Below are positions 2,151 through 59,869 of a stretch of DNA of 64,000 nucleotides, piece after piece. The number at the start of each line of letters is the position of its first letter. Within the stretch, counting starts at the first letter, position 1. The notes under the pieces are model-generated. The model ran no database searches and was not told the origin of the DNA. It worked only from the letters and a program-made list of their open reading frames with translations. The position numbers and the translations under genes were made by a program. Source of the DNA: Escherichia phage ECO07P2; the sequence record OP172785; one strand, written 5' to 3'.

Positions 2151-2177
2151 ACAAAAAAGGGAGCCCGAAGGCTCCCT
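2151..2177 (-). terminator. rho-independent terminator with UUCG tetraloop (minus strand)
   Basis: minus-strand RNA GGGAGCC-UUCG-GGCUCCC followed by U6, immediately after stop of nucleotidyltransferase ORF. Confidence 0.7.
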
Positions 2178-5704: not shown

Positions 5705-5728
5705 GAAAAAAGTCTCCCGAAGGAGACT
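5705..5728 (-). terminator. rho-independent terminator with UUCG tetraloop (minus strand)
   Basis: minus-strand RNA AGUCUCC-UUCG-GGAGACU followed by U6; directly after stop of ORF 5733-6119. Confidence 0.7.
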
Positions 5729-15113: not shown

Positions 15114-15487
15114 CGTGATTCCTTAACAAATTTCATAATTTCATCAAATTCATGTGCAGCAAGTTTAATCTGGTGTTCCTTTTTAATCTTTTTGCACTGG
15201 GCTTTCCAATCACGTACGCGTTTACGATAATGTCTTCCTTGATACCAGTATCCTACCCAATTTACGGGTACTAATAAAAGTGGAACTACCAATGGAAGAA
15301 TTAGCATTAACACAAGTATTTCGCCAGAATCAATATCAGTCATAACATCTAAAACACCTCCAATAATCAATAGAATTACAAATGATATAAGTATAACAGG
15401 ACCTATTAATACATCAGTAGAAATTATCTGACGCTTTAATTCATACTTCAACGGTTTACTTGGAAGGTATAGTGATGGTTTTGACAT
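15095..15487 (-). CDS. membrane protein
   Basis: about 130 aa from ATG 15487; two hydrophobic helices. Confidence 0.5.
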   Translation of the reverse strand: MSKPSLYLPSKPLKYELKRQIISTDVLIGPVILISFVILLIIGGVLDVMTDIDSGEILVLMLILPLVVPLLLVPVNWVGYWYQGRHYRKRVRDWKAQCKKIKKEHQIKLAAHEFDEIMKFVKESRCKSQN

Positions 15488-16064
15488 ATTCTCTACATTC
15501 CTTAACAAATTTTTCTAGTAATAAATCACTTTCAAAATTAGGATTTTCCACTAATTTATCAAAAAGATCATCAACAATATTCAAGATATTTCTTTTACTA
15601 AGAATACGTTTATTTTCATGCTTCGTTTCAGAATCAACTATAAGAGTAAAGAAATATTTCTTTCCCTGAAATTTTACTGTAGTATCAATATAGAATAAAT
15701 TTGACTTTTGTAAGTTACGTTTAAACCATGCGTCACTTAAACTATAAACACCGAGATAATCAAAATCGTCGTTTAAATAACATACTGTCCATTCAGGAGA
15801 AATGAAATCAGTAAATTCAACATCAAAATCACACGTCAATGAATGAATTGATTCAATACTGTTAATAAGTATTCCAGGACGTATTAAAGACTTTTTACCT
15901 CTAGAAAATCTTCCAGAAAGACTTTCATCAGTTTCATATGAAGACCCCCAATAGTAATTACGTCCTTCTGCCATACGTTTAAGAGCATTTAGTAATTGGT
16001 CTGGAACATCAACCTGTCTTTGGAACTCTTCAAACATTGAATTGAAATCACTTTGCATTTTCAT
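15456..16064 (-). CDS. hypothetical protein (202 aa)
   Basis: ORF in track; no motif recognised. Confidence 0.55.
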   Translation of the reverse strand: MKMQSDFNSMFEEFQRQVDVPDQLLNALKRMAEGRNYYWGSSYETDESLSGRFSRGKKSLIRPGILINSIESIHSLTCDFDVEFTDFISPEWTVCYLNDDFDYLGVYSLSDAWFKRNLQKSNLFYIDTTVKFQGKKYFFTLIVDSETKHENKRILSKRNILNIVDDLFDKLVENPNFESDLLLEKFVKECREYVKTITIPSK

Positions 16065-16084
16065 TCCTATTTACTCCAAGTAAT

Positions 16085-16100
16085 AGGGGCCGAAGCCCCT
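16085..16100 (-). terminator. UUCG-tetraloop hairpin after gene end (AGGGGC-UUCG-GCCCCU on minus RNA)
   Basis: 5 nt after stop of ORF 16106-16699; identical hairpin recurs after hoc at 56452-56467; no strong U tract so may be a stability or processing element. Confidence 0.45.
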
Positions 16101-16105
16101 TATCA

Positions 16106-16699
16106 TTATTTCAGAGAATTAATGTATTCCTGAACATCGGCAGAGGTAGTTTCAACCCCAGAAATATTACCATTAAAGGTTTCAACTCGAGCAAGGGTAT
16201 CTTCAATATCAACCTTAGTCAGTGCTGCAATTTCAACTACATCATCGGCAGTACTAATTCCAAGGGCATTTGCCGCACGAGTTTCACGGATATATTCCAA
16301 TTTAACTGCAAGTTCTTGGCGAGCATCATCTAACTCAACTACTTTCTTGGCGATTTCAATTCGCATTTCAGCATAACCATCAGCTTTAGTAGTCAACTGT
16401 TCAGCTGTTCGGCGATATAGTAAACCGAGTTTAGCATGCATTGTTACATCTTGACCCTCGGAAAGAAGCTTGCGAATTTCACGCTCTTTTGATTCGGCCT
16501 GCTTATTCTTTTCAATAACAAGTTCACGAATACGTTTTTCTTCATTAATAGATTTAACAGAAGCAGTTTTTAGATCTTTAATTTTATCAAGTAGTTTTGC
16601 TGCTGCAGCAGTATACTGTTCTTCAACAGATAGATTTTTAGCCATAGCAGAACCAAGTTTAGTGCGAATAAACTCAACAATTTTCTTCAGCATGTTCAT
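16106..16699 (-). CDS. coiled-coil protein (197 aa)
   Basis: heptad-rich, charged, Ala/Glu/Lys/Arg-rich sequence; no catalytic motif. Confidence 0.55.
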
Positions 16700-16745
16700 A
16701 GCATTTCCTTTAGTTAATTAAGGGTTTTATAATCCATGGGAGTAT

Positions 16746-16922
16746 TATACTCCGGATAGTTTGTAAACTATTTCAACATCGCCTTTTGCTGCTTTATAAC
16801 CTTCAGCCCAAGATACAACCGAGTTTTTATCCGAAGATTCAAATTCTGGCATTGGGCTTTCGCCAATGTTCACGCAGTATGTTTCTTCATTTTCGTCAAA
16901 CCAAATAATTAAAGTAGTCATT
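16746..16922 (-). CDS. possible small protein (58 aa) not in ORF track
   Basis: ATG at 16920-16922; hand translation MTTLIIWFDENEETYCVNIGESP...; weak SD. Confidence 0.3.
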
Positions 16923-17326: not shown

Positions 17327-17455
17327 AGTTTTGTGAAAAATTTTAAAAAGTTTTAGGGAATTCTAGGGCAGGGAGGGGCAATTAAAGGATAGGATAATAT
17401 ATTATAAAGGGTAGAAACTAAATGATGTCTAGAGAGGCCTGGAAAGGCCTAGATA

Positions 17456-17486
17456 CCAAAAAGCCCCAACCCTTTGGCTAGGGCTA
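17456..17486 (-). terminator. rho-independent terminator (minus strand)
   Basis: minus RNA AGCCCUAGCC-AAAG-GGUUGGGGCU followed by U5, just after stop of CTS gene 17493-17966. Confidence 0.6.
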
Positions 17487-17492
17487 AGAATG

Positions 17493-17966
17493 TTATTTGA
17501 TCTGTTTAGCAGACCAAATGCGGTCTTTAATAATTTTTTGGATGTCTTCAACATACTCAAGAGAGTGAGCATGTGGGTTATCTTTGAAACTATAAGCACG
17601 AGCCAGTTTTTGGCCTTCAGTTTTGATTACTAAAAGCTCTTTAAGGATAGCTTCATATTTGGAGATAATTCCTTTAACAATATTTTTTTCTTGTACAGCT
17701 TTAGGATCTGCTTTAGGAGCAGGTTTACCTGAAGCCTTTGCAAAAGCAGCTCCAGTAGCAACTAAACTTTTCCAAGCCATACTAACTGCATTCCCTGTAA
17801 ATCCTTCGGCTTTCATATCACGAGCAAATTGGAATCGTGATTCATCGGAAGCATCTTTATAGGAATATTTACCCGCGGCAATGGCAGCTTTTGCAACAGC
17901 TTGAATTTCAGTGCTAGATGCTTCATTTAACACAGCTTCATTTAAAAATTGAGCATATGATTTCAT
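17493..17966 (-). CDS. CTS protein (internal-protein-like, 157 aa)
   Basis: N-terminus MKSYAQFLNEAV resembles the CTS; Ala/Lys-rich body; own late promoter and flanking terminators. Confidence 0.6.
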   Translation of the reverse strand: MKSYAQFLNEAVLNEASSTEIQAVAKAAIAAGKYSYKDASDESRFQFARDMKAEGFTGNAVSMAWKSLVATGAAFAKASGKPAPKADPKAVQEKNIVKGIISKYEAILKELLVIKTEGQKLARAYSFKDNPHAHSLEYVEDIQKIIKDRIWSAKQIK

Positions 17967-18002
17967 CTTATTTCCTGTTTTAATTCGTGGTTTTAATATA
18001 CT

Positions 18003-18010
18003 TATTTATA
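18003..18010 (-). promoter_or_regulatory. late promoter (TATAAATA on minus strand)
   Basis: plus-strand tatttata 18003-18010, about 37 nt upstream of ATG at 17966. Confidence 0.55.
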
Positions 18011-18013
18011 CTA

Positions 18014-18040
18014 AAAAGCCCCAACCTTTCGGTCGGGGCT
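18014..18040 (-). terminator. rho-independent terminator with GAAA loop (minus strand)
   Basis: minus RNA AGCCCCGACC-GAAA-GGUUGGGGCU followed by U5; ends transcription coming from tRNA and small-RNA region. Confidence 0.65.
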
Positions 18041-18045
18041 AAGCC

Positions 18046-18718: not shown

Positions 18719-18794
18719 TGGTCGAGGCAGTAGGGATCGAACCTACGACCTAGGACTTAGAAGGTCCTTGCTCTTCCTTCTGAGCTATGCCCCG
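18719..18794 (-). tRNA. tRNA-Arg (anticodon UCU), CCA encoded
   Basis: hand-folded cloverleaf on minus strand; anticodon loop CUUCUAA; GGTTCGATCC T-arm. Confidence 0.8.
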
Positions 18795-18798
18795 TAAT

Positions 18799-18874
18799 TG
18801 GGGTGACCGATGGGAGTCGAACCCATGACTACGAGAATCACAATCTCGAGTTCTACCAACTGAACTACGGCCAC
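18799..18874 (-). tRNA. tRNA-His (anticodon GUG) with extra 5-prime G
   Basis: anticodon arm CGAGA-UUGUGAU-UCUCG; G-1 pairs with C73; T-arm GGGTTCGACTCCC. Confidence 0.7.
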
Positions 18875-18988
18875 ATTAATATCTACTCCAACAATCAAGA
18901 TGTCTTCACACGAAATTAAGAGAAGAGTGATCAGTTCAACCCCGATAATCGCGTCAAGTAGATATTAATGTGACAGTTGTCACAAATT

Positions 18989-19063
18989 TGGCGGACGTGA
19001 TAGGATTCGAACCTATAACCAATCGCTTAACAGGCGATCGCTCTGCCATTGAGCTACACATCC
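18989..19063 (-). tRNA. tRNA-Asn (anticodon GUU)
   Basis: anticodon arm ATCGC-CUGUUAA-GCGAT; T-arm ATAGG-TTCGAAT-CCTAT. Confidence 0.7.
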
Positions 19064-19067
19064 AAAT

Positions 19068-19154
19068 TGGTGGGGAGTGATGGAGTCGAACCACCCGAGT
19101 CGCAATGACAATGGATTTACAGTCCACACCGCTACCTCTACGGGATAACTCCCC
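19068..19154 (-). tRNA. tRNA-Tyr (anticodon GUA), long variable arm
   Basis: acceptor GGGGAGT/ACTCCCC; anticodon loop CUGUAAA; class II length 87 nt. Confidence 0.65.
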
Positions 19155-19167
19155 TTAATTCTTAATT

Positions 19168-19242
19168 TGGTGGCCCTGGGTGGAATTGAACCACCATCTG
19201 GCGATTATGAGTCGCTTGCTTGAACCTTCCAGCTACAGGGCC
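19168..19242 (-). tRNA. tRNA with CAU anticodon (T4 tRNA-Ile-like; Met by anticodon alone)
   Basis: anticodon loop CUCAUAA; adjacent to tRNA-Thr as the T4 Thr-Ile pair. Confidence 0.65.
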
Positions 19243-19243
19243 T

Positions 19244-19319
19244 TGGTGCTGATTGACGGAATCGAACCGCCGACCTTCTCATTACAAGTGAGTTGCTCTA
19301 CCTACTGAGCTAAATCAGC
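19244..19319 (-). tRNA. tRNA-Thr (anticodon UGU)
   Basis: acceptor GCTGATT/AATCAGC; anticodon loop CUUGUAA; T-arm GGCGG-TTCGATT-CCGTC. Confidence 0.75.
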
Positions 19320-19324
19320 AAAAC

Positions 19325-19414
19325 TGGCGGAGGCGATAGGATTTGAACCTATGAGTCGCCGGAGCGACTGCCGGTTTTCAAGACCGGTGCATTAAACCAC
19401 TCTGCCACGCCTCC
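19325..19414 (-). tRNA. tRNA-Ser (anticodon UGA), long variable arm
   Basis: anticodon arm CCGGT-CUUGAAA-ACCGG; 90 nt class II. Confidence 0.75.
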
Positions 19415-19416
19415 AG

Positions 19417-19490
19417 TCTCCATACAAGGATTTGAACCTTGGACCTCCTGATCCCAAATCAGGCGCTCTACCAAACTGAGCTACACGGAG
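19417..19490 (-). tRNA. tRNA-Pro (anticodon UGG), CCA not encoded
   Basis: anticodon arm CCTGA-UUUGGGA-TCAGG; only 2 nt from tRNA-Ser 5-prime end (dimeric precursor as in T4). Confidence 0.75.
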
Positions 19491-19500
19491 TAAATTAAAT

Positions 19501-19574
<74 letters not shown>

Positions 19575-19579
19575 AAATT

Positions 19580-19666
19580 TGGTGCGAGAAGTGGGACTCG
19601 AACCCACAAGGAAATCATTCCGCAGCATTTTAAGTGCTGTGCCTTTACCAATTTGACCATTCTCGC
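19580..19666 (-). tRNA. tRNA-Leu (anticodon UAA), long variable arm
   Basis: anticodon arm CAGCA-CUUAAAA-TGCTG; 87 nt. Confidence 0.75.
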
Positions 19667-19667
19667 G

Positions 19668-19740
19668 CTGGGAATAAAGGACTCGAACCTTTGCATCCTG
19701 GAATCAAAATCCAGTGCCTTACCAACTTGGCTAATTCCCA
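19668..19740 (-). tRNA. tRNA-Gln (anticodon UUG), CCA not encoded
   Basis: acceptor TGGGAAT/ATTCCCA; anticodon arm CTGGA-UUUUGAU-TCCAG; 1 nt from tRNA-Leu (Gln-Leu dimeric precursor). Confidence 0.75.
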
Positions 19741-28061: not shown

Positions 28062-30044
28062 ATGGCAAATACCCCTGTAAATTATCAATTAACAAGAACA
28101 GCAAATGCTATTCCCGAGATATTCGTCGGGGGCACATTTGCTGAAATAAAACAAAACCTCATTGAATGGCTTAATGGCCAAAATGAATTTTTGGATTATG
28201 ATTTTGAAGGCTCAAGATTAAACGTTCTGTGTGACCTTTTGGCTTATAATACGCTGTACATTCAGCAGTTTGGTAATGCTGCCTTGTATGAAAGCTTTAT
28301 GCGTACTGCTAACTTACGTAGTTCAGTAGTTCAAGCGGCACAAGATAATGGATATTTACCTACTTCAAAATCAGCTGCTCAAACTGAAATTATGCTAACT
28401 TGTACAGACGCATTGAATAGAAATTACATTACTATTCCTCGTGGTACTCGCTTTTTAGCATATGCAAAAGATACTTCAGTTAATCCTTACAACTTTGTAT
28501 CTACTGAAGATGTTATTGCTATTCGTGATAAAAATAACCAATATTTTCCACGTTTAAAATTGGCTCAGGGACGTATAGTAAGAACTGAAATCATTTATGA
28601 TAAATTAACACCTATTATCATTTATGACAAAAATATTGATAGAAACCAGGTTAAATTATATGTTGATGGAGCAGAATGGATTAACTGGACAAGAAAGTCA
28701 ATGGTTCATGCTGGTTCTACATCAACAATTTACTACATGCGTGAAACTATTGATGGAAATACTGAGTTTTATTTTGGTGAAGGTGAGATTTCTGTTAATG
28801 CGGCAGAAGGAGCATTGACTGCTAATTATATTGGGGGTCTTAAACCTACCCAGAACTCTACGATTGTTATTGAGTACATCAGTACTAACGGCGCAGATGC
28901 GAATGGCGCAGTCGGATTTTCATATGCAGATACATTGACAAATATAACTGTCATCAACATTAATGAAAATCCAAACGATGACCCAGATTTTGTTGGGGCA
29001 GATGGCGGCGGCGATCCAGAAGATATTGAACGTATTCGCGAATTGGGTACTATTAAACGCGAAACCCAGCAACGCTGCGTAACTGCGACTGACTATGATA
29101 CATTCGTTTCAGAGAGATTTGGTTCTATTATTCAAGCAGTTCAGACTTTCACTGATTCTACTAAACCTGGTTATGCATTTATTGCTGCTAAACCTAAATC
29201 GGGGCTGTATTTAACTACTGTACAACGCGAAGATATTAAAAATTATCTCAAAGACTATAATTTAGCTCCTATTACGCCATCAATTATTTCTCCTAATTAT
29301 CTTTTTATTAAGACTAATTTAAAAGTCACATATGCTTTAAATAAGCTACAAGAATCCGAACAGTGGCTCGAAGGTCAAATAATTGATAAAATTGATCGTT
29401 ATTATACCGAAGACGTAGAAATTTTTAACTCATCTTTCGCTAAATCTAAGATGTTGACATATGTAGATGATGCAGATCACTCTATCATTGGCTCATCAGC
29501 GACAATTCAAATTGTTCGTGAAGTACAAAACTTCTATAAAACGCCTGAAGCAGGTATTAAATACAATAATCAAATAAAAGATCGTTCTATGGAATCTAAT
29601 ACGTTTTCATTTAATTCTGGACGAAAGGTTGTGAATCCTGATACTGGTTTAGAAGAAGATGTATTATATGACGTTCGCATAGTATCAACAGACCGAGATT
29701 CTAAAGGAATTGGTAAAGTTATTATTGGTCCATTTGCTTCTGGCGATGTTACAGAAAATGAAAACATTCAGCCGTATACAGGCAACGATTTTAACAAATT
29801 AGCAAATTCTGATGGACGCGACAAATACTATGTTATCGGTGAAATAAATTATCCAGCTGATGTGATTTATTGGAATATCGCTAAAATTAATTTAACATCT
29901 GAAAAATTTGAAGTTCAGACCATCGAATTATATTCTGACCCAACCGATGATGTTATCTTTACTCGCGACGGTTCACTGATTGTATTTGAAAATGACTTAC
30001 GTCCACAATACTTAACTATCGATTTGGAGCCTATATCACAATGA
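28062..30044 (+). CDS. 6: baseplate wedge protein gp6
   Basis: 660 aa; synteny and size identical to T4. Confidence 0.9.
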   Translation: MANTPVNYQLTRTANAIPEIFVGGTFAEIKQNLIEWLNGQNEFLDYDFEGSRLNVLCDLLAYNTLYIQQFGNAALYESFMRTANLRSSVVQAAQDNGYLPTSKSAAQTEIMLTCTDALNRNYITIPRGTRFLAYAKDTSVNPYNFVSTEDVIAIRDKNNQYFPRLKLAQGRIVRTEIIYDKLTPIIIYDKNIDRNQVKLYVDGAEWINWTRKSMVHAGSTSTIYYMRETIDGNTEFYFGEGEISVNAAEGALTANYIGGLKPTQNSTIVIEYISTNGADANGAVGFSYADTLTNITVININENPNDDPDFVGADGGGDPEDIERIRELGTIKRETQQRCVTATDYDTFVSERFGSIIQAVQTFTDSTKPGYAFIAAKPKSGLYLTTVQREDIKNYLKDYNLAPITPSIISPNYLFIKTNLKVTYALNKLQESEQWLEGQIIDKIDRYYTEDVEIFNSSFAKSKMLTYVDDADHSIIGSSATIQIVREVQNFYKTPEAGIKYNNQIKDRSMESNTFSFNSGRKVVNPDTGLEEDVLYDVRIVSTDRDSKGIGKVIIGPFASGDVTENENIQPYTGNDFNKLANSDGRDKYYVIGEINYPADVIYWNIAKINLTSEKFEVQTIELYSDPTDDVIFTRDGSLIVFENDLRPQYLTIDLEPISQ

Positions 30045-51926: not shown

Positions 51927-53492
51927 ATGACTATCAAAACTAAAGCTGAACTTTTGAACAAATGGAAGCCATTACTGGAAGGTGAAGGTTTACCGGAAAT
52001 TGCTAATAGCAAACAAGCGATTATCGCTAAAATCTTTGAAAACCAGGAAAAAGATTTCCAGACAGCTCCGGAATATAAAGACGAAAAAATTGCTCAGGCA
52101 TTTGGTTCTTTCTTAACAGAAGCTGAAATCGGTGGTGACCACGGTTACAATGCTACCAACATCGCTGCAGGTCAGACTTCTGGCGCAGTAACTCAGATTG
52201 GCCCGGCTGTTATGGGTATGGTACGTCGTGCTATTCCTAACCTGATTGCTTTCGATATTTGCGGTGTTCAACCAATGAGCAGCCCAACCGGTCAGGTATT
52301 CGCACTCCGCGCGGTATATGGTAAAGATCCGATCGCTTCCGATGCTAAAGAAGCATTCCACCCAATGTATGGTCCAGACGCAATGTTCTCTGGTCAGGGT
52401 GCTGCTAAGAAATTCCCAGCTCTGGCTGCTAGCACACAAACCGTTGTAGGTGATATCTATACTCACTTCTTCCAGGAAACTGGTACTGTGTATCTGCAAG
52501 CTTCCGCTGTAGTAACAATCGATGCTGGTGCGACTGATGCTGCTAAATTAGATGCTGAAATTAAGAAACAAATGGAAGCTGGTGTACTGGTAGAAATCGC
52601 TGAAGGTATGGCTACTTCTATCGCTGAACTTCAGGAAGGTTTCAACGGTTCTACCGATAACCCATGGAATGAAATGGGCTTCCGTATCGATAAACAAGTT
52701 ATCGAAGCTAAATCTCGCCAGCTGAAAGCTGCTTACTCTATCGAATTAGCACAAGACCTCCGCGCTGTTCACGGTATGGATGCTGATGCTGAACTGTCTG
52801 GTATTCTGGCTACCGAAATCATGCTGGAAATCAACCGCGAAGTTGTTGATTGGATTAACTACTCGGCTCAGGTTGGTAAATCTGGTATGACCCTGACTCC
52901 GGGTTCTAAAGCTGGTGTATTTGACTTCCAGGATCCGATTGATATTCGTGGTGCTCGCTGGGCGGGTGAATCCTTTAAAGCTCTGTTGTTCCAGATTGAC
53001 AAAGAAGCAGTTGAAATTGCTCGTCAGACCGGTCGTGGTGAAGGTAACTTCATTATCGCTTCCCGTAACGTAGTTAACGTTCTGGCTTCAGTTGATACTG
53101 GCATTTCTTATGCTGCACAGGGTCTGGCTACCGGCTTTAACACTGATACTACCAAGTCAGTATTTGCGGGTGTTCTGGGTGGTAAATACCGCGTATATAT
53201 CGACCAGTATGCTAAACAGGATTATTTCACTGTAGGTTATAAAGGTCCGAACGAAATGGATGCTGGTATTTACTATGCTCCATATGTAGCTCTGACTCCG
53301 CTGCGTGGTTCCGATCCGAAGAACTTCCAACCAGTAATGGGATTCAAAACTCGTTACGGTATCGGTATCAACCCATTTGCAGAATCCGCTGCTCAGGCTC
53401 CGGCTTCTCGCATCCAGAGCGGTATGCCTTCTATTCTGAATAGCCTTGGTAAAAACGCTTACTTCCGCCGTGTATATGTTAAAGGTATCTAA
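51927..53492 (+). CDS. 23: major capsid protein gp23
   Basis: 521 aa; translation matches T4 gp23 almost residue for residue, including the N-terminal propeptide MTIKTKAELLNKWKPLLEGEGLPE. Confidence 0.98.
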   Translation: MTIKTKAELLNKWKPLLEGEGLPEIANSKQAIIAKIFENQEKDFQTAPEYKDEKIAQAFGSFLTEAEIGGDHGYNATNIAAGQTSGAVTQIGPAVMGMVRRAIPNLIAFDICGVQPMSSPTGQVFALRAVYGKDPIASDAKEAFHPMYGPDAMFSGQGAAKKFPALAASTQTVVGDIYTHFFQETGTVYLQASAVVTIDAGATDAAKLDAEIKKQMEAGVLVEIAEGMATSIAELQEGFNGSTDNPWNEMGFRIDKQVIEAKSRQLKAAYSIELAQDLRAVHGMDADAELSGILATEIMLEINREVVDWINYSAQVGKSGMTLTPGSKAGVFDFQDPIDIRGARWAGESFKALLFQIDKEAVEIARQTGRGEGNFIIASRNVVNVLASVDTGISYAAQGLATGFNTDTTKSVFAGVLGGKYRVYIDQYAKQDYFTVGYKGPNEMDAGIYYAPYVALTPLRGSDPKNFQPVMGFKTRYGIGINPFAESAAQAPASRIQSGMPSILNSLGKNAYFRRVYVKGI

Positions 53493-53506
53493 TCTTTGAC
53501 GATTTA

Positions 53507-53537
53507 AGGGACCTTCGGGTCCCTTTAGTTGTTTTTA
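53507..53537 (+). terminator. rho-independent terminator after gene 23 (UUCG loop)
   Basis: AGGGACC-UUCG-GGUCCCU hairpin followed by UUAGUUGUUUUUA. Confidence 0.7.
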
Positions 53538-53540
53538 TGG

Positions 53541-53548
53541 TATAAATA
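53541..53548 (+). promoter_or_regulatory. late promoter TATAAATA for gene 24
   Basis: exact TATAAATA 28 nt upstream of gp24 ATG. Confidence 0.6.
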
Positions 53549-53575
53549 AATCATATAAACCAAAAGGAAAGCGCA

Positions 53576-54859
53576 ATGGCTAAAATCAACGAACTTCTGC
53601 GCGAATCAACCACAACGAATAGCAACTCAATCGGTCGCCCAAATCTCGTTGCTTTGACTCGCGCTACCACTAAATTAATATATTCTGACATTGTAGCAAC
53701 GCAAAGAACTAATCAACCTGTTGCTGCTTTTTATGGTATCAAATACCTTAACCCAGATAACGAATTTACGTTTAAAACTGGTGCTACTTACGCTGGCGAA
53801 GCTGGATATGTAGACCGAGAACAAATCACAGAATTAACAGAAGAGTCTAAATTAACTCTCAATAAAGGCGATTTATTCAAATATAATAATATCGTTTATA
53901 AAGTATTAGAAGATACACCATTTGCTACCATTGAAGAAAGCGATTTAGAATTAGCTCTTCAGATTGCAATTGTTCTTTTAAAGGTTCGTCTATTTTCTGA
54001 CGCAGCGTCAACGAGCAAATTTGAAAGCTCTGATAGCGAAATTGCTGATGCTAGATTCCAGATTAATAAATGGCAAACCGCAGTTAAATCTCGTAAACTT
54101 AAAACTGGCATTACAGTTGAATTAGCACAAGATTTAGAAGCAAATGGATTCGATGCTCCTAATTTCTTGGAAGATTTGCTCGCAACTGAAATGGCGGATG
54201 AAATCAATAAAGATATTCTGCAGTCTTTGATTACAGTATCAAAACGCTATAAAGTTACAGGAATTACTGATACTGGATTCATTGATTTGAGTTATGCATC
54301 CGCGCCTGAAGCTGGTCGTTCATTATACCGAATGGTGTGTGAAATGGTTTCGCATATCCAAAAAGAATCAACTTATACAGCAACGTTCTGTGTTGCTTCA
54401 GCTCGTGCTGCTGCGATTCTTGCTGCATCAGGTTGGTTAAAACATAAACCAGAAGATGACAAATATCTTTCACAAAATGCCTACGGGTTCTTAGCTAATG
54501 GTTTACCGCTTTATTGCGATACTAACAGCCCATTAGATTATGTAATCGTTGGTGTAGTAGAAAATATCGGTGAAAAAGAAATTGTTGGATCAATTTTCTA
54601 TGCTCCGTATACAGAAGGTCTTGACTTAGATGACCCTGAACATGTAGGTGCATTTAAAGTTGTGGTTGATCCAGAAAGCTTACAACCGTCTATCGGTTTA
54701 TTAGTTAGATATGCTTTATCAGCAAATCCTTACACTGTAGCAAAAGATGAAAAAGAAGCAAGAATAATTGATGGTGGAGACATGGATAAAATGGCGGGTC
54801 GTTCAGATTTGTCTGTTTTATTAGGTGTTAAGCTACCAAAAATTATCGTTGATGAATAA
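53576..54859 (+). CDS. 24: capsid vertex protein gp24
   Basis: 427 aa as in T4; paralogous to gp23. Confidence 0.95.
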   Translation: MAKINELLRESTTTNSNSIGRPNLVALTRATTKLIYSDIVATQRTNQPVAAFYGIKYLNPDNEFTFKTGATYAGEAGYVDREQITELTEESKLTLNKGDLFKYNNIVYKVLEDTPFATIEESDLELALQIAIVLLKVRLFSDAASTSKFESSDSEIADARFQINKWQTAVKSRKLKTGITVELAQDLEANGFDAPNFLEDLLATEMADEINKDILQSLITVSKRYKVTGITDTGFIDLSYASAPEAGRSLYRMVCEMVSHIQKESTYTATFCVASARAAAILAASGWLKHKPEDDKYLSQNAYGFLANGLPLYCDTNSPLDYVIVGVVENIGEKEIVGSIFYAPYTEGLDLDDPEHVGAFKVVVDPESLQPSIGLLVRYALSANPYTVAKDEKEARIIDGGDMDKMAGRSDLSVLLGVKLPKIIVDE

Positions 54860-54864
54860 AACAA

Positions 54865-54890
54865 AGGGACCGAAAGGTCCCTTTTTATTT
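54865..54890 (+). terminator. bidirectional terminator between gene 24 and rnlB
   Basis: AGGGACC-GAAA-GGUCCCU hairpin flanked by A-run on one side and T-run on the other. Confidence 0.7.
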
Positions 54891-55893
54891 AACTTACCAA
54901 TTCAATCCAAGCCGGACGAAGTACATCTTGTACCATTTTAACTAATTCCTTTTTAATCAAAGAAGGATTATCCGATTGAGTTAGAGTAATACCTTCACGA
55001 GAAGTTTCTTCCAAAATATCTTGAACAGTTAGCCCCATTACCTTTCCAAAATCTTTTGGACCAATTTCGCCAATTTTAGAAATAACGTTATTTACTCGGT
55101 TCAGTGTAACATAGCAAGCTAAAATTCCCAGCAATTTATTATCAGCTTCTGACAACTCAACTTTAGCTTTAATAGGCTTATCAGACTTTTTCTTTTCGCT
55201 AAATTTAGAGTTCTTGCATTTAATCGCTACACGATTGCCATTAGGCATCCAAGAAGGATAACAAGGTTTCAATACATATCCTTCAGCAGTAAATACTTCG
55301 CCTTTTGCTTCGGCATTCCAAACGCATTTATTTGCATCAACTAATCCAGCATGGTCTACTGTAAAATTATAATCCTGGACGACAGAATCTAAATCATTTG
55401 GCAATTTAATAAGCTCTTCAAATTTACCGCGACCTAAAAGTGGAGCCATTTTAAATTTAAATGTATTGCAGAATGATTCCATCATATAATCATCGACATA
55501 AGTTACATCACCGCTTTCCGTAGTAACAATAATGTCAAATACATAAAAGTCTTTATCGCCATAATCGACATTCTTCTGAATGCCAGGTCCAGCGAATTCA
55601 CCAAAAACTTGATAAGATACAACTGCTGAAGTTTCCATAATATCTTGTACTGCTTTAATGGAATCAGCGTAATTCTTTAGAATAATTTCATACCCAAAGA
55701 AATCTTCAGCAGGAAAAATAGGACCAGTACGTTTAGCACAAGTTACTTTATCACGCTCAATAATCAATGAAAAGTTTGTACCATGAATCTTTTCACGAGC
55801 TACCCATTCGCCGCCAGTCAATCCTAAACTGTAGAGTTTTTCAATGAATTTAGAATTGTAATGATTTTCAAGACTGCTATACTTTTTAAACAT
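54889..55893 (-). CDS. rnlB: RNA ligase 2 (RnlB)
   Basis: 334 aa; nucleotidyl-transferase lysine motif in EKIHGTNFS and motif IV/V region; same length and position as T4 Rnl2. Confidence 0.85.
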
Positions 55894-56383: not shown

Positions 56384-56451
56384 GTTATCGAGTTGATGCC
56401 ATTATATACAACGTTTTCTGATTGTGTTTTGCGTGCTTTCAAAATGAAGAA

Positions 56452-56467
56452 AGGGGCCGAAGCCCCT
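56452..56467 (-). terminator. UUCG-tetraloop hairpin after hoc
   Basis: identical AGGGGC-UUCG-GCCCCU hairpin to the one at 16085-16100, 5 nt after hoc stop. Confidence 0.5.
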
Positions 56468-56472
56468 TATGA

Positions 56473-57603
56473 TTATGGATAGGTATAGATGATACCAGTT
56501 TCTAAAGCAGTTTTATGAATGATGTATCCATTGCGCGATTCTTGAACATCAACTTCTGGATAGTCTTTCATCATCTTCTGAAGAGTGTAACGATGCAAGT
56601 AGTACTTACTATCTGGGTCGTCAGTTTTCCAATCTTTACCTTCTTCAGTCATTTTTTGGATTTCATCCATAACCCACCAACCGCACCAGATGTAAGCTGA
56701 AGTGCGATGTGGAAGAGGATGAACATAAGGTAATTCACCTTCTGGTTCCGGAGCAACTTTATCAGTTACCTGAACTTGACCTTCTGCTGTGATAGTTTTG
56801 CTATCATAGTCAGTTGCTGTAACGACAGCAGTAACTTCAATAGTTTGACTTCCAATAGATGATGTATCAACGGTGTATACATTAGTTGACCCTTCTACTG
56901 GAGAAGAATCTTTCTTCCATGAATATTCAATTTGCGCTTCTTCTGGAGCATCAGTGACATTAGCAGTAAATGTAGCTGAAGCATCTTGTTGAACGTTAAT
57001 AGAAGGAGGAGTCAATGTAACCTGTGGATTCATTGTCTTCTTATTAACAGTCAGTGATACTTCATTAGAAGTAACTTCCTTTGCATCATAATCTGTCGCT
57101 GTTACTTGAGCTACGCATTTAATTCTTTTTACTCCACTTGTAGTTGGAGTATAGCTAAATGCAGCGGAAGTTGCTTCACTAACAGGAGAATCATCTACAT
57201 ACCACTGATACGTAGCAGACGCTCCAACTGGTTGAGAATCTAAGGCAGCAGTAAATTGAACTGGGGTTCCAATTACTCCAGCTGAAGGACTATCTGGAGT
57301 TACTGCCAAAGTAGTTGTTTGTGTCTTATTTTGAACTGTGATAGTTGTAGTAGCTTCTGCTGTTTCAGCTTCAGCTTCTGGAACTGTATTTGTTGCAACT
57401 ACTTTAATAGTCTTTTGACCGGCAGGTCCTTTTAGTACATAACTAAAAGTTGCTTCAGCTCCATCTTGTGGAACATCATCTACAGTCCAAGCATAGGTAA
57501 TAGTTCCGCCTCCAGTTTCACCACTGGGTGTAGCAGTAAACTGCTGAGTCTGATCTATAACTCCAGTAGGTGTTTTAGGAGTTATATCAACTGTAAAAGC
57601 CAT
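56473..57603 (-). CDS. hoc: highly immunogenic outer capsid protein Hoc
   Basis: 376 aa; tandem Ig-like domains with repeated YxWxxD and Thr-rich beta strands; same length as T4 Hoc. Confidence 0.85.
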   Translation of the reverse strand: MAFTVDITPKTPTGVIDQTQQFTATPSGETGGGTITYAWTVDDVPQDGAEATFSYVLKGPAGQKTIKVVATNTVPEAEAETAEATTTITVQNKTQTTTLAVTPDSPSAGVIGTPVQFTAALDSQPVGASATYQWYVDDSPVSEATSAAFSYTPTTSGVKRIKCVAQVTATDYDAKEVTSNEVSLTVNKKTMNPQVTLTPPSINVQQDASATFTANVTDAPEEAQIEYSWKKDSSPVEGSTNVYTVDTSSIGSQTIEVTAVVTATDYDSKTITAEGQVQVTDKVAPEPEGELPYVHPLPHRTSAYIWCGWWVMDEIQKMTEEGKDWKTDDPDSKYYLHRYTLQKMMKDYPEVDVQESRNGYIIHKTALETGIIYTYP

Positions 57604-57612
57604 AAGTTATCC

Positions 57613-58293
57613 TTATTTTAATGTTACGAAAGAAGAGTTGCGTGTTTCACGAATTAGAACTGATCCGTCACGGTTAATGTAGTAAATTAAGCTAAATAAA
57701 GTTTGATGTGCCGACGCGTGTTCAAAACTAGTTGGGTGAGATTTCCAATCCGGAGTTTCAGCAATCCATTGATAAATCCACCAAGGAACAGTACAGAATC
57801 CTGGATTTTTTCCAATCAGCTGAAGATTCGGACTAAAGTTTTCCGGAAGAGTAAATACAGACGGCTTTTCAGATTCAATAATCTCAGCTACGGCCTGCTC
57901 GAATTTTTCTTCAACAAAAGGAGTATCTTCAATCAAAACATCGGTATTTTCAGGAATTTTATCCGTTTCTACTACTTCAATTTTAATGTCAGATTTAACC
58001 GGAGAATCAATCAGAAGTGCTGCCTCTGGATTGACTTCTTCATCGTCATATTTTAACCCCTCTGCAGCATCAGCAGCATTGATTAAGTCTTTAATAGATA
58101 ACCCATCAGTCTCTGGCATAGGTTCACTAGCGAGCTTCTGGAGGGCTTCTTCAATATCAGCAACGATATTATCAAAAGATTTATTCTTTTTGACCTTTAT
58201 ACCAAACTGTTCAGCATATTCAGCTAATTTAGCCTTAGCTTCTTTATTATCATCAAGAGCCTTCAGCTCTGCAATATAATCTTTATCTATCAT
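57613..58293 (-). CDS. inh: inhibitor of prohead protease gp21 (Inh)
   Basis: 226 aa, same length and position as T4 Inh. Confidence 0.75.
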   Translation of the reverse strand: MIDKDYIAELKALDDNKEAKAKLAEYAEQFGIKVKKNKSFDNIVADIEEALQKLASEPMPETDGLSIKDLINAADAAEGLKYDDEEVNPEAALLIDSPVKSDIKIEVVETDKIPENTDVLIEDTPFVEEKFEQAVAEIIESEKPSVFTLPENFSPNLQLIGKNPGFCTVPWWIYQWIAETPDWKSHPTSFEHASAHQTLFSLIYYINRDGSVLIRETRNSSFVTLK

Positions 58294-58306
58294 AATATTT
58301 CCTCAG

Positions 58307-58314
58307 TATAAATA
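58307..58314 (+). promoter_or_regulatory. late promoter TATAAATA upstream of uvsW
   Basis: exact TATAAATA 30 nt upstream of uvsW ATG. Confidence 0.5.
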
Positions 58315-58343
58315 TAGATATATTTATTACATGGTATTTAGAC

Positions 58344-59855
58344 ATGACTGACATTAAAGTACATTTTTATGATTTTAGTCACGTGAGAATTGATTGTGAA
58401 GAAAGTACATTTCATGAACTCCGTGATTTCTTTAGCTTTGAAGCTGATGGGTATCGTTTTAATCCGAAATACAAGTATGGTCACTGGGATGGACGAATCC
58501 GTCTATTAGATTATAATCGCCTTCTTCCGTTTGGTTTAGTCGGGCAAATTAAAAAGTTCTGTGATAACTTTGGCTATAAAGCCTGGATTGACCCACAGAT
58601 TAACGAAAAAGAAGAATTATCAAGAAAAGATTTTGATGAATGGCTTTCTAAGTTAGAAATCTATTCAGGAAATAAAAGAATTGAACCGCACTGGTATCAA
58701 AAAGATGCAGTGTTCGAAGGATTAGTTAATCGTCGTAGAATTCTTAATCTTCCAACATCCGCAGGTAAATCATTAATTCAAGCTTTGCTTGCACGTTATT
58801 ATTTGGAAAATTATGAAGGTAAAATTCTTATCATTGTTCCAACAACTTCTCTGACAACTCAGATGGCTGATGACTTTGTTGACTATCGTTTATTCAGTCA
58901 TGCAATGATAAAGAAAATCGGTGGTGGAGCATCAAAAGATGATAAATATAAAAATGATGCACCAGTCGTTGTTGGTACATGGCAAACTGTAGTAAAACAA
59001 CCAAAAGAATGGTTCTCACAGTTTGGAATGATGATGAACGATGAATGCCATCTTGCCACAGGAAAAAGTATTTCATCTATCATATCAGGTTTAAATAACT
59101 GCATGTTTAAATTCGGTCTATCAGGTTCATTACGTGATGGCAAAGCTAATATCATGCAGTATGTTGGAATGTTTGGTGAAATATTTAAGCCAGTAACGAC
59201 TTCTAAATTAATGGAAGATGGACAAGTAACTGAGTTAAAAATTAATAGTATTTTTCTTCGCTATCCTGATGAGTTCACTACTAAATTAAAGGGAAAAACT
59301 TACCAAGAAGAAATAAAAATTATTACTGGGCTCAGTAAAAGAAATAAATGGATCGCTAAATTAGCTATTAAACTTGCGCAAAAAGATGAAAATGCTTTTG
59401 TCATGTTTAAACATGTATCACATGGTAAAGCTATTTTCGATTTAATTAAAAATGAATACGATAAAGTTTATTACGTATCAGGGGAAGTTGATACTGAAAC
59501 GCGCAATGTAATGAAAACCTTAGCTGAAAACGGTAAAGGAATAATTATAGTAGCTAGTTATGGTGTATTTTCTACTGGTATTTCAGTTAAAAATCTGCAT
59601 CACGTTGTTTTAGCACACGGTGTTAAATCTAAAATTATTGTATTGCAAACAATAGGTCGCGTATTACGTAAGCATGGTTCTAAAACAATCGCAACAGTCT
59701 GGGACCTCATAGATGATTGCGGTGTTAAGCCAAAATCTGCTAATACGAAAAAGAAATACGTTCATTTGAACTATCTTTTAAAACACGGCATTGATCGTAT
59801 TCAGCGCTACGCAGATGAAAAATTTAATTACGTAATGAAAACAGTTAATTTATAA
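58344..59855 (+). CDS. uvsW: UvsW DNA/RNA helicase (SF2)
   Basis: 503 aa; Walker A LPTSAGKS, DECH box MMNDECHL and helicase C motifs. Confidence 0.9.
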   Translation: MTDIKVHFYDFSHVRIDCEESTFHELRDFFSFEADGYRFNPKYKYGHWDGRIRLLDYNRLLPFGLVGQIKKFCDNFGYKAWIDPQINEKEELSRKDFDEWLSKLEIYSGNKRIEPHWYQKDAVFEGLVNRRRILNLPTSAGKSLIQALLARYYLENYEGKILIIVPTTSLTTQMADDFVDYRLFSHAMIKKIGGGASKDDKYKNDAPVVVGTWQTVVKQPKEWFSQFGMMMNDECHLATGKSISSIISGLNNCMFKFGLSGSLRDGKANIMQYVGMFGEIFKPVTTSKLMEDGQVTELKINSIFLRYPDEFTTKLKGKTYQEEIKIITGLSKRNKWIAKLAIKLAQKDENAFVMFKHVSHGKAIFDLIKNEYDKVYYVSGEVDTETRNVMKTLAENGKGIIIVASYGVFSTGISVKNLHHVVLAHGVKSKIIVLQTIGRVLRKHGSKTIATVWDLIDDCGVKPKSANTKKKYVHLNYLLKHGIDRIQRYADEKFNYVMKTVNL

Positions 59856-59869
59856 GGGCTTCGGCCCTT
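59854..59869 (+). other. UUCG hairpin between uvsW and uvsW.1
   Basis: AAGGGC-UUCG-GCCCUU followed by GGAG SD of uvsW.1. Confidence 0.45.

Follow-up and report, generated by a model that had tools for sequence, protein, structure and literature searches.

Hairpins of the C(UUCG)G type that lie between the cistrons of bacteriophage T4 were reportedly described by Tuerk et al. (1988, PNAS 85:1364). A passage of PMC4371310 places the discovery of the UUCG tetraloop in T4 mRNA, and passages there and in PMC8948821 (citing Tuerk 1988) describe CUUCGG hairpins as abundant in the intergenic regions of T4 and as stopping reverse transcriptase. The terminators of T4 are described as a GC stem with a 4-nt loop and poly(U), and a T4 terminator with weak poly(U) inside mobE has been found to stop about 30% of transcripts (PMC2988022). 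T4-type phages furthermore carry promoter-early stem-loop composites (PeSLs), the stems of which are built from a G-run arm and a C-run arm (PMC2839356, PMC4122927). Members of this class are recognized by an early sigma-70-type promoter (TTTACW N17 TAYWAT), by a Shine-Dalgarno sequence with a start codon, and by about 100 bp that are conserved between copies. In E. coli operons, finally, REP elements form 3'-terminal stem-loops that block exonucleases, and a stable intercistronic hairpin that lies within an operon and is devoid of a U tract is likewise expected to stall PNPase and RNase II.

The hairpins considered here are found in a stretch of 64,000 nt of DNA from Escherichia phage ECO07P2, hereafter referred to as the window. 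The phage is a T4-like Tequatrovirus, its identity to phages such as phiD1 and ECO07P3 being about 97%. With the genes named as in T4, the first of the two focal hairpins separates e.6 from e.5 and the second separates hoc from 24.3, and T4 itself has both hairpins at these junctions, together with identical near flanks. We consider it quite probable that this pair, which is three in T4, represents the classical C(UUCG)G extra-stable hairpin of T4, operating at the mRNA level just past a stop codon, as a terminator at hoc and as a leaky attenuator or barrier at e.6, and that the identity of the copies has arisen by convergence. The feature is real and looks functional, yet it is ordinary and already known, and it is not a new module; extra-stable UUCG stem-loops are set just past genes in many bacteria, too, where they end or protect mRNAs. 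Indeed it is from the T4 lineage that the first description of the UUCG tetraloop comes, and in several relatives the hairpins already carry the annotation of putative terminators.

Sequence, placement and conservation of the hairpins

The first-pass annotation of the window had reported the same hairpin 5 nt past two unrelated stop codons, those of ORF 16106-16699 and of hoc, and this is borne out by the sequence, in which the codon is TAA and the hairpin is on the coding strand both times. On the minus (sense) strand the window has two exact matches to the 16-mer AGGGGCTTCGGCCCCT, one at 16085-16100 and one at 56452-56467, and on the plus strand it has a relative with two mismatches, AAGGGCTTCGGCCCTT, at 59854-59869; from dinucleotide shuffles, 0.02 matches with at most two mismatches are expected. 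The spacer between stop codon and hairpin reads TGATA at e.6 (ORF 16106-16699) and TCATA at hoc (ORF 56473-57603), and since the hoc stem reaches 7 bp by way of an extra A-U pair, the gap between stop codon and hairpin is 4 nt there. Read along the minus strand, the e.6 site is ...CUGAAA UAA UGAUA (AGGGGC UUCG GCCCCU) AUUACUU GGAG UAAAUAGGA AUG..., and the hoc site is ...UAUCCA UAA UCAUA (AGGGGC UUCG GCCCCU) UUCUUCAUUUUG....

The 16-mer is predicted to fold into a 6-bp stem with a UUCG loop at -11.2 kcal/mol, and both hairpins are retained in the minimum-energy fold of their 86-nt contexts. Both sites have five G-C pairs and a 4-nt loop, as in the GC-rich stem of a Rho-independent terminator, and both have, on the sense strand, a UUCG loop closed by C-G on a stem of 6 bp at e.6 and 7 bp at hoc, as in a C(UUCG)G tetraloop. 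When the whole window was searched with Rfam covariance models at gathering score only 11 tRNAs were matched, none of them at the hairpins. These tRNA matches form a cluster on the minus strand (18722-19740), one of them being barely above the threshold (19073-19152, 30.2 bits), and the T4 annotation lists eight tRNAs. The features of the two sites are collected in Table 1 along with further hairpins of the window.

Table 1. Hairpins of the window and the genes and signals adjoining the two focal copies
Feature	Position	Strand	Basis or remark
AGGGAGCC-UUCG-GGCUCCCU with U5, 1 nt past the nrdC.11 homologue	2158..2177	-	strong terminator type; T4 equivalent 55414-55433
AGUCUCC-UUCG-GGAGACU with U5, 4 nt past the rI.-1 homologue, then GGTTTACTTTCC	5711..5728	-	terminator plus early-promoter -35 type
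e.5 homologue, 202 aa, downstream gene	15456..16064	-	ORF list; T4 e.5 starts at the equivalent ATG
GGAG Shine-Dalgarno of e.5	16074..16077	-	7 nt past the hairpin, 9 nt before the ATG at 16064; read from the sequence
Hairpin AGGGGC-UUCG-GCCCCU between e.6 and e.5	16085..16100	-	exact match, fold; no U tract downstream
e.6 homologue, 197 aa, upstream gene	16106..16699	-	ORF list; named e.6 by the G28 and T4 annotation
AAGGGACC-UUCG-GGUCCCUU, 13 nt past gene 23 (major head protein)	53506..53525	+	hairpin scan
Two-way hairpin between convergent gene 24 (plus, GAAA loop) and rnlB (minus, UUUC loop)	54863..54884	both	U-rich tails on both strands
Interrupted U-rich tail UCUUCAUUUUG of the hoc hairpin	56440..56450	-	5 U in the first 8 nt
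Hairpin AAGGGGC-UUCG-GCCCCUU, 7 bp, after hoc	56451..56468	-	fold, terminator scan
hoc, 376 aa	56473..57603	-	TAA 4-5 nt before the hairpin
AAGGGC-UUCG-GCCCUU, 2-nt overlap of the uvsW stop	59854..59869	+	adjoins the UGGAG Shine-Dalgarno of the next ORF; no U tract

For a census of such hairpins the T4 genome (NC_000866) was scanned whole and the hairpins were mapped onto the T4 annotation, a strong hairpin being defined as a stem of at least 6 bp with at least 4 G/C, G-U pairs allowed. UUCG is the commonest loop among the strong hairpins of T4, occurring 22 times as compared to 4 times for the next commonest loop on the sense strand, and dinucleotide shuffles lead one to expect just 0.53 strong UUCG hairpins in T4 and 0.19 in the window, where 8 are found. 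All 22 of the T4 hairpins are on the transcribed strand, and 16 of them are located between a 5-nt overlap with a stop codon and 25 nt past it, with 14 of these 16 confined to the range from 5 nt overlap to 6 nt past the stop; the remaining ones are the known gene 60 bypass hairpin and five hairpins within coding sequence. The exact 16-mer is present in three copies in T4, all on the sense strand. The third copy (29953-29968, outside the window) is found 3 nt past the regA stop, with AUUUGGAGUAUAAU between it and gene 43. A U tract is missing here as it is at e.6, and UUGGAGUA follows at both places.

The other hairpins that had been listed for the window (at 2158, 5711, 53506, 54863 and 59854) are real as well, all of them being on the sense strand and located from 2 nt overlap to 13 nt past an ORF stop, and the hairpins with GCAA, GAAA and CAUG loops after wac, 19 and 8 are likewise on the sense strand and within this range. 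At 54863..54884 the NR1 record annotates terminators, and for the UUCG hairpin at 59854-59869 the T4 scan turned up no equivalent at that place. In this part of the window gene 24 is found directly after gene 23 (53492-53576) and uvsW directly after inh (58293-58344), and from these direct junctions it follows that the phage is without the homing-endonuclease genes segD and segE that T4 has there.

Conservation of the hairpins was studied in loci encoding e.6 and Hoc homologues, which were taken from IMG/VR. At the e.6 site all homologues (73-99% protein identity) have a hairpin within 2-8 nt and then the next Shine-Dalgarno sequence, with just 3-5 U before the latter, and the stems differ between lineages, namely AGGGGC-UUCG, GGAGGAC-UCCG, GGGAGAC-UUCG, and GGGGGC with a UUU or AAA loop. 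At the hoc site a hairpin is found a few nucleotides past the stop codon in 19 of the 20 complete loci (33-92% identity), and these relatives display 14 distinct hairpins with UUCG, UUGC, GCAA or CUAG loops, most of them having a U-run downstream. In the hoc alignment 96.9% of the cells are paired and five of the seven pairs exhibit compensatory change, and the covariation score is 0.576, with shuffles giving 0.206 and no slid register exceeding 0.161, in an alignment that is loop-anchored on searched hairpins and thereby biased toward pairing. Even in the raw hoc sequences it is plain that stems have turned over while their place in the genome stayed the same. In relatives a hairpin is retained at either orthologous site, and it is the sequence of its stem that changes. 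The enrichment of UUCG, the confinement of all 22 hairpins to the transcribed strand and the compensatory changes in relatives are in good agreement with the earlier notion that the hairpin is an RNA-level feature belonging to a gene-closing family. As for the count of the exact 16-mer in the genome and in relatives, which the first-pass annotation had proposed as a check, there are two copies in the window and three in T4, and the stems at the sites of the relatives vary.

Predicted termination and read-through at the two sites

At hoc the terminator scan flags the minus (sense) strand, on which a U tract follows the stem, and the site is listed as a terminator in the NR1 and SA21RB records. 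A late promoter is located upstream of inh (PMC2988022), and in the spacer between hoc and 24.3 a TATAAT is present without an acceptable -35 element or MotA box on the sense strand. Judged from the sequence, the hoc copy most likely ends the inh-hoc transcript, acting as a moderately strong Rho-independent terminator, and its hairpin would remain at the 3' end of this transcript as a cap against 3'-to-5' exonucleases. The first-pass annotation had stated that neither copy has a strong U tract; this is correct for e.6, but holds only in part for hoc, where the U-rich tail UCUUCAUUUUG is flagged as terminator-like.

The e.6 site is labelled 'putative transcriptional terminator' in the annotation of phage G28. 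On the sense strand, however, the terminator scan does not flag the tail of the e.6 hairpin (AUUACUUGGAG; ATTACTTGGAG; AUUACUUGG), which is without a U tract, and the AUUACUU that follows the hairpin leads directly into the GGAG of e.5. A promoter scan of the 41-nt spacer between e.6 and e.5 gave no promoter-like site, and the early RNA class covers both e.5 and e.6 in T4 (omics data, PMC9697503 supplement). Since the e.6 hairpin has no U tract and the ribosome-binding site of e.5 is found 7 nt further on, most polymerases must read through, and transcription of e.5 needs this read-through of the e.6 hairpin. From a tail that scores as a non-terminator we infer that attenuation at e.6 is at most leaky, and the e.6 hairpin is most likely a leaky attenuator that would also act as a barrier to 3'-exonucleases. 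In this capacity it would shield the e.6 RNA from 3'-exonucleases once the RNA has been cleaved downstream, and as a local structure it may in addition free the initiation region of e.5 from pairing with upstream sequence and thereby provide insulation. On the other side of e.6 the window has, at 16745-16921 on the minus strand, an unrelated 58-aa ORF where T4 has e.7 (111 aa); this ORF is identical to RB14ORF134 according to the phage G28 annotation and constitutes a gene swap adjoining the e.6 module.

By a d'Aubenton-Carafa-type formula, which is approximate and serves for rough ranking only, e.6 (-25), uvsW (-47), wac (-32) and 19 (-51) rank as non-terminators and nrdC.11 (+42) and rI.-1 (+17) as terminators, while hoc is borderline, at -10 with the 7-bp stem and at about +19 when the G-C core alone is counted by hand as the stem. 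The T4-type hairpins fall into at least two classes, one of which has a U tract and comprises terminators, some of them joined to early promoters, and another that is without U tract and directly precedes the next ribosome-binding site. Hairpins adjoining the next Shine-Dalgarno sequence are found at e.6, regA, uvsW and 37>38. The division into stability or processing on the one side and termination on the other, as drawn in the first-pass annotation, is accordingly too coarse, the hoc copy being terminator-like and the e.6 copy not.

It is conceivable, albeit in our view on the doubtful side, that neither copy terminates transcription and that their function is post-transcriptional only, the hairpins acting as 3'-exonuclease blocks or as 5' caps after endonuclease cleavage and thus setting the half-lives of neighbouring cistrons. 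The stem-loop is predicted to be extremely stable, T4 mRNA is degraded by 3'-exonucleases, and RegB, RNase E and RNase G cut intergenically (PMC3014915); furthermore a CUUCGG hairpin at the 5' end is reported, in a passage of PMC8948821, to stabilize gene 32 mRNA, and the GGAG located 7 nt past the e.6 hairpin would be in line with such a function. The U-rich tail at hoc is however typical of terminators, and the e.5 site GGAGUAAAUAG agrees with the strong RegB consensus GGAGRAYARAA at just 7 of 11 positions, these being the fixed GGAG and three others. A strong RegB site at e.5 is rejected on account of this poor match (consensus from PMC3014915).

Unlikely, too, and more so, is the possibility that both copies are plain Rho-independent terminators of high efficiency, with one transcription unit ending after e.6 and another after hoc. 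Support for it comes from the records of relatives, in which both sites are annotated as putative terminators, from the agreement with the T4 type of GC stem, 4-nt loop and poly(U) (PMC2988022), and from the fact that about 60% of the independent occurrences of the 16-mer among those listed are followed by a U-run. It is in poor agreement with the e.6 site, where the tail AUUACUUGG is without a U tract and the sense strand is unflagged, where relatives have just 3-5 U before the Shine-Dalgarno sequence, and where the 41-nt spacer offers no promoter-like site, yet e.5 has to be expressed and belongs to the same early class as e.6.

A translational role appears rather improbable. By this explanation the terminating ribosome melts the hairpin, which either uncouples initiation at e.5 from termination at e.6 or ties formation of the terminator to translation of the upstream gene. 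Positions from 5 nt overlap to 6 nt past the stop codon are within the ribosome footprint, and in T4 this range holds 14 of the 16 UUCG hairpins that follow stop codons. Moreover several hairpins adjoin the next Shine-Dalgarno sequence, as mentioned for e.6, regA, uvsW and 37>38. The tight packing may however merely reflect genome compaction, and UUCG loops are described, in a passage of PMC4371310, as binding no proteins.

Copied module or convergence

The exact duplication at distant loci had been taken by the first-pass annotation to suggest a discrete module for RNA stability or processing, and a flanking context common to both copies had been noted. A shared AUAAU-N-AUA indeed exists (8 of 9 positions, the TAA included, AT-rich), but it is not significant and it is not conserved in close relatives, which have TCTC before the hoc hairpin, unlike the spacer of the window. 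Local alignment of the 30-nt flanks of e.6 and hoc in T4 yields p = 0.54 upstream and 0.92 downstream as compared to shuffled flanks, and a copied module is rejected for this pair, since the flanks are no more alike than shuffled ones. Exact matches to the 16-mer are furthermore found in unrelated viral contigs (at least 120, with a G+C of 33-64%) and, across many phyla, in contigs of bacteria or archaea (again at least 120). Among the matches listed, at least 5 U are found in the 8 nt after the 16-mer in 61-63% of those in UUCG orientation as opposed to 22-28% of those in antisense. The arm-swapped 16-mer AGCCCCTTCGGGGGCT, used as a control for a preference for G in the 5' arm, also has at least 120 matches. 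In Hoc lineages that are 47-53% identical the hairpin is (A/G)UGGGGC-UUCG-GCCCCA(U/C), having the same core but a different outer pair. The claim that duplication signifies a discrete module is thus not supported, in view of the absence of a significant shared flank, the occurrence of the 16-mer in all these viral, bacterial and archaeal contigs, the outer pair that differs in distant Hoc stems, and the reuse by T4 of several further stems besides AGGGGC.

Given the missing flank homology and the ubiquity of the 16-mer, the exact duplication is best read as convergence, and the sites are identical in this 16-mer because it is near the simplest and most stable solution rather than through copying. 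The stem would be composed of one A-U pair and four G-C pairs that have their G in the 5' arm, with a C-G pair closing the UUCG, and a hairpin built in this way would form in the mRNA immediately on transcription, just past the stop codon. For the purpose of annotation it follows that the exact repeat of a 16-nt GC-clamped UUCG hairpin is no evidence of a mobile or duplicated module.

Among the 16 post-stop UUCG hairpins of T4 there are nonetheless 9 pairs with identical 6-nt arms as compared to an expectation of 0.12 (uniform) or about 1.2 (position-specific). This excess of identical stems may reflect either preferred whole stems or some exchange between sites. We see a slim chance that the UUCG hairpins without U tract that adjoin the next GGAG (e.6>e.5, regA>43, uvsW>next ORF) are a distinct device, or else that identical stems have spread between the intergenic sites of T4. 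In the former case the device might be an attenuator gated by translation, or it might protect 3' ends in a manner coupled to RegB or RNase E cutting the Shine-Dalgarno sequence downstream; in the latter case spreading might take place by micro-homology recombination or gene conversion among the T4 intergenic sites, and if true, this would account for identical stems being about 8 times above the position-independent model.

Composites of the PeSL kind are present in these genomes. On the minus strand, from 5711-5728 to about 5680, the window has a hairpin, U5 and then GGTTTACTTTCC, with a GGTTTAC early-promoter -35 element following the hairpin, and this fits a terminator-promoter composite of the PeSL kind (PMC4122927). 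In T4 the downstream flanks of soc and rI.-1 share this arrangement of hairpin, U5 and GGTTTACTTTCC (alignment score 19, p < 0.0003). A 36-nt direct repeat (83% identity), located at 17453-17488 and 18008-18043 on the minus strand around ORF 17493-17966 (157 aa), is formed by a 10-bp terminator hairpin (AGCCCC..GGUUGGGGCU, then UUUU) that is present twice. T4 has a single copy of this 10-bp hairpin (70834-70857, after rnaC) and is without the 157-aa ORF, and the arrangement resembles the insertion of a gene cassette between two duplicates of a terminator, in the manner of modular shuffling of the PeSL type. In T4, moreover, the hairpins at 15303-15324 (after soc) and 130339-130360 (after 30.9) have a common, non-trivial stem and tail of about 24 nt, AGGACUCC-UUCG-GGAGUCCUUUUUU, for which convergence on a G-run is a less ready explanation than it is for AGGGGC.

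That the two focal copies themselves are a copied or mobile PeSL-like cassette, made identical by recombination or gene conversion between intergenic sites, is nevertheless very unlikely. The over-representation of identical stems in T4 (the 9 pairs against about 1.2), the TTTTCATTT..GGTTTACTTTCC shared by the soc and rI.-1 flanks, the 36-nt terminator repeat flanking an extra ORF at 17453-18043 and the modular shuffling via PeSLs that has been described (PMC2839356, PMC4122927) all speak in favor of such a scheme. However, similarity between the e.6 and hoc flanks is absent, the e.6 spacer is without a promoter, the same 16-mer is found in hundreds of unrelated genomes, and 16 bases are very short for homologous exchange. 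A DNA-level palindrome (a cruciform, a protein-binding site or a recombination signal) or a chance repeat has next to no probability and both are rejected on strand bias and enrichment, since even though the stem is a perfect inverted repeat in DNA, a palindrome does not require 22 of 22 UUCG loops to be on the transcribed strand, the counts are about 40 times the shuffle expectation, and pairing is preserved by compensatory changes.

Comparison with known systems

REP elements are longer imperfect palindromes with a conserved sequence and a dedicated transposase lineage, whereas the feature described here is a 16-nt generic hairpin. With the PeSLs the focal copies have in common that they are intergenic stem-loops with a G-run and a C-run, of a kind that acts as terminator or attenuator, and the published consensus A3-4G3-loop-C3T3-4 resembles the stems found here. 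No recognisable early promoter is however found after either focal copy and the flanks are not conserved between the copies, and membership in the PeSL class is rejected on both of these grounds.

The likeness to the intrinsic terminators of E. coli and T4 is closer, comprising a GC-rich stem and a 4-nt loop just past the stop codon and, at hoc, the U-rich tail as well, but the e.6 copy differs in being without a U tract and in the read-through that is needed for e.5. It is the C(UUCG)G hairpins of T4 that the focal copies resemble the most, sharing with these the UUCG closed by C-G, the short GC-rich stem, the intergenic position on the mRNA strand and indeed the phage lineage itself. There is no structural difference between these hairpins and the focal copies, and T4 carries both of them in addition to the copy at regA.
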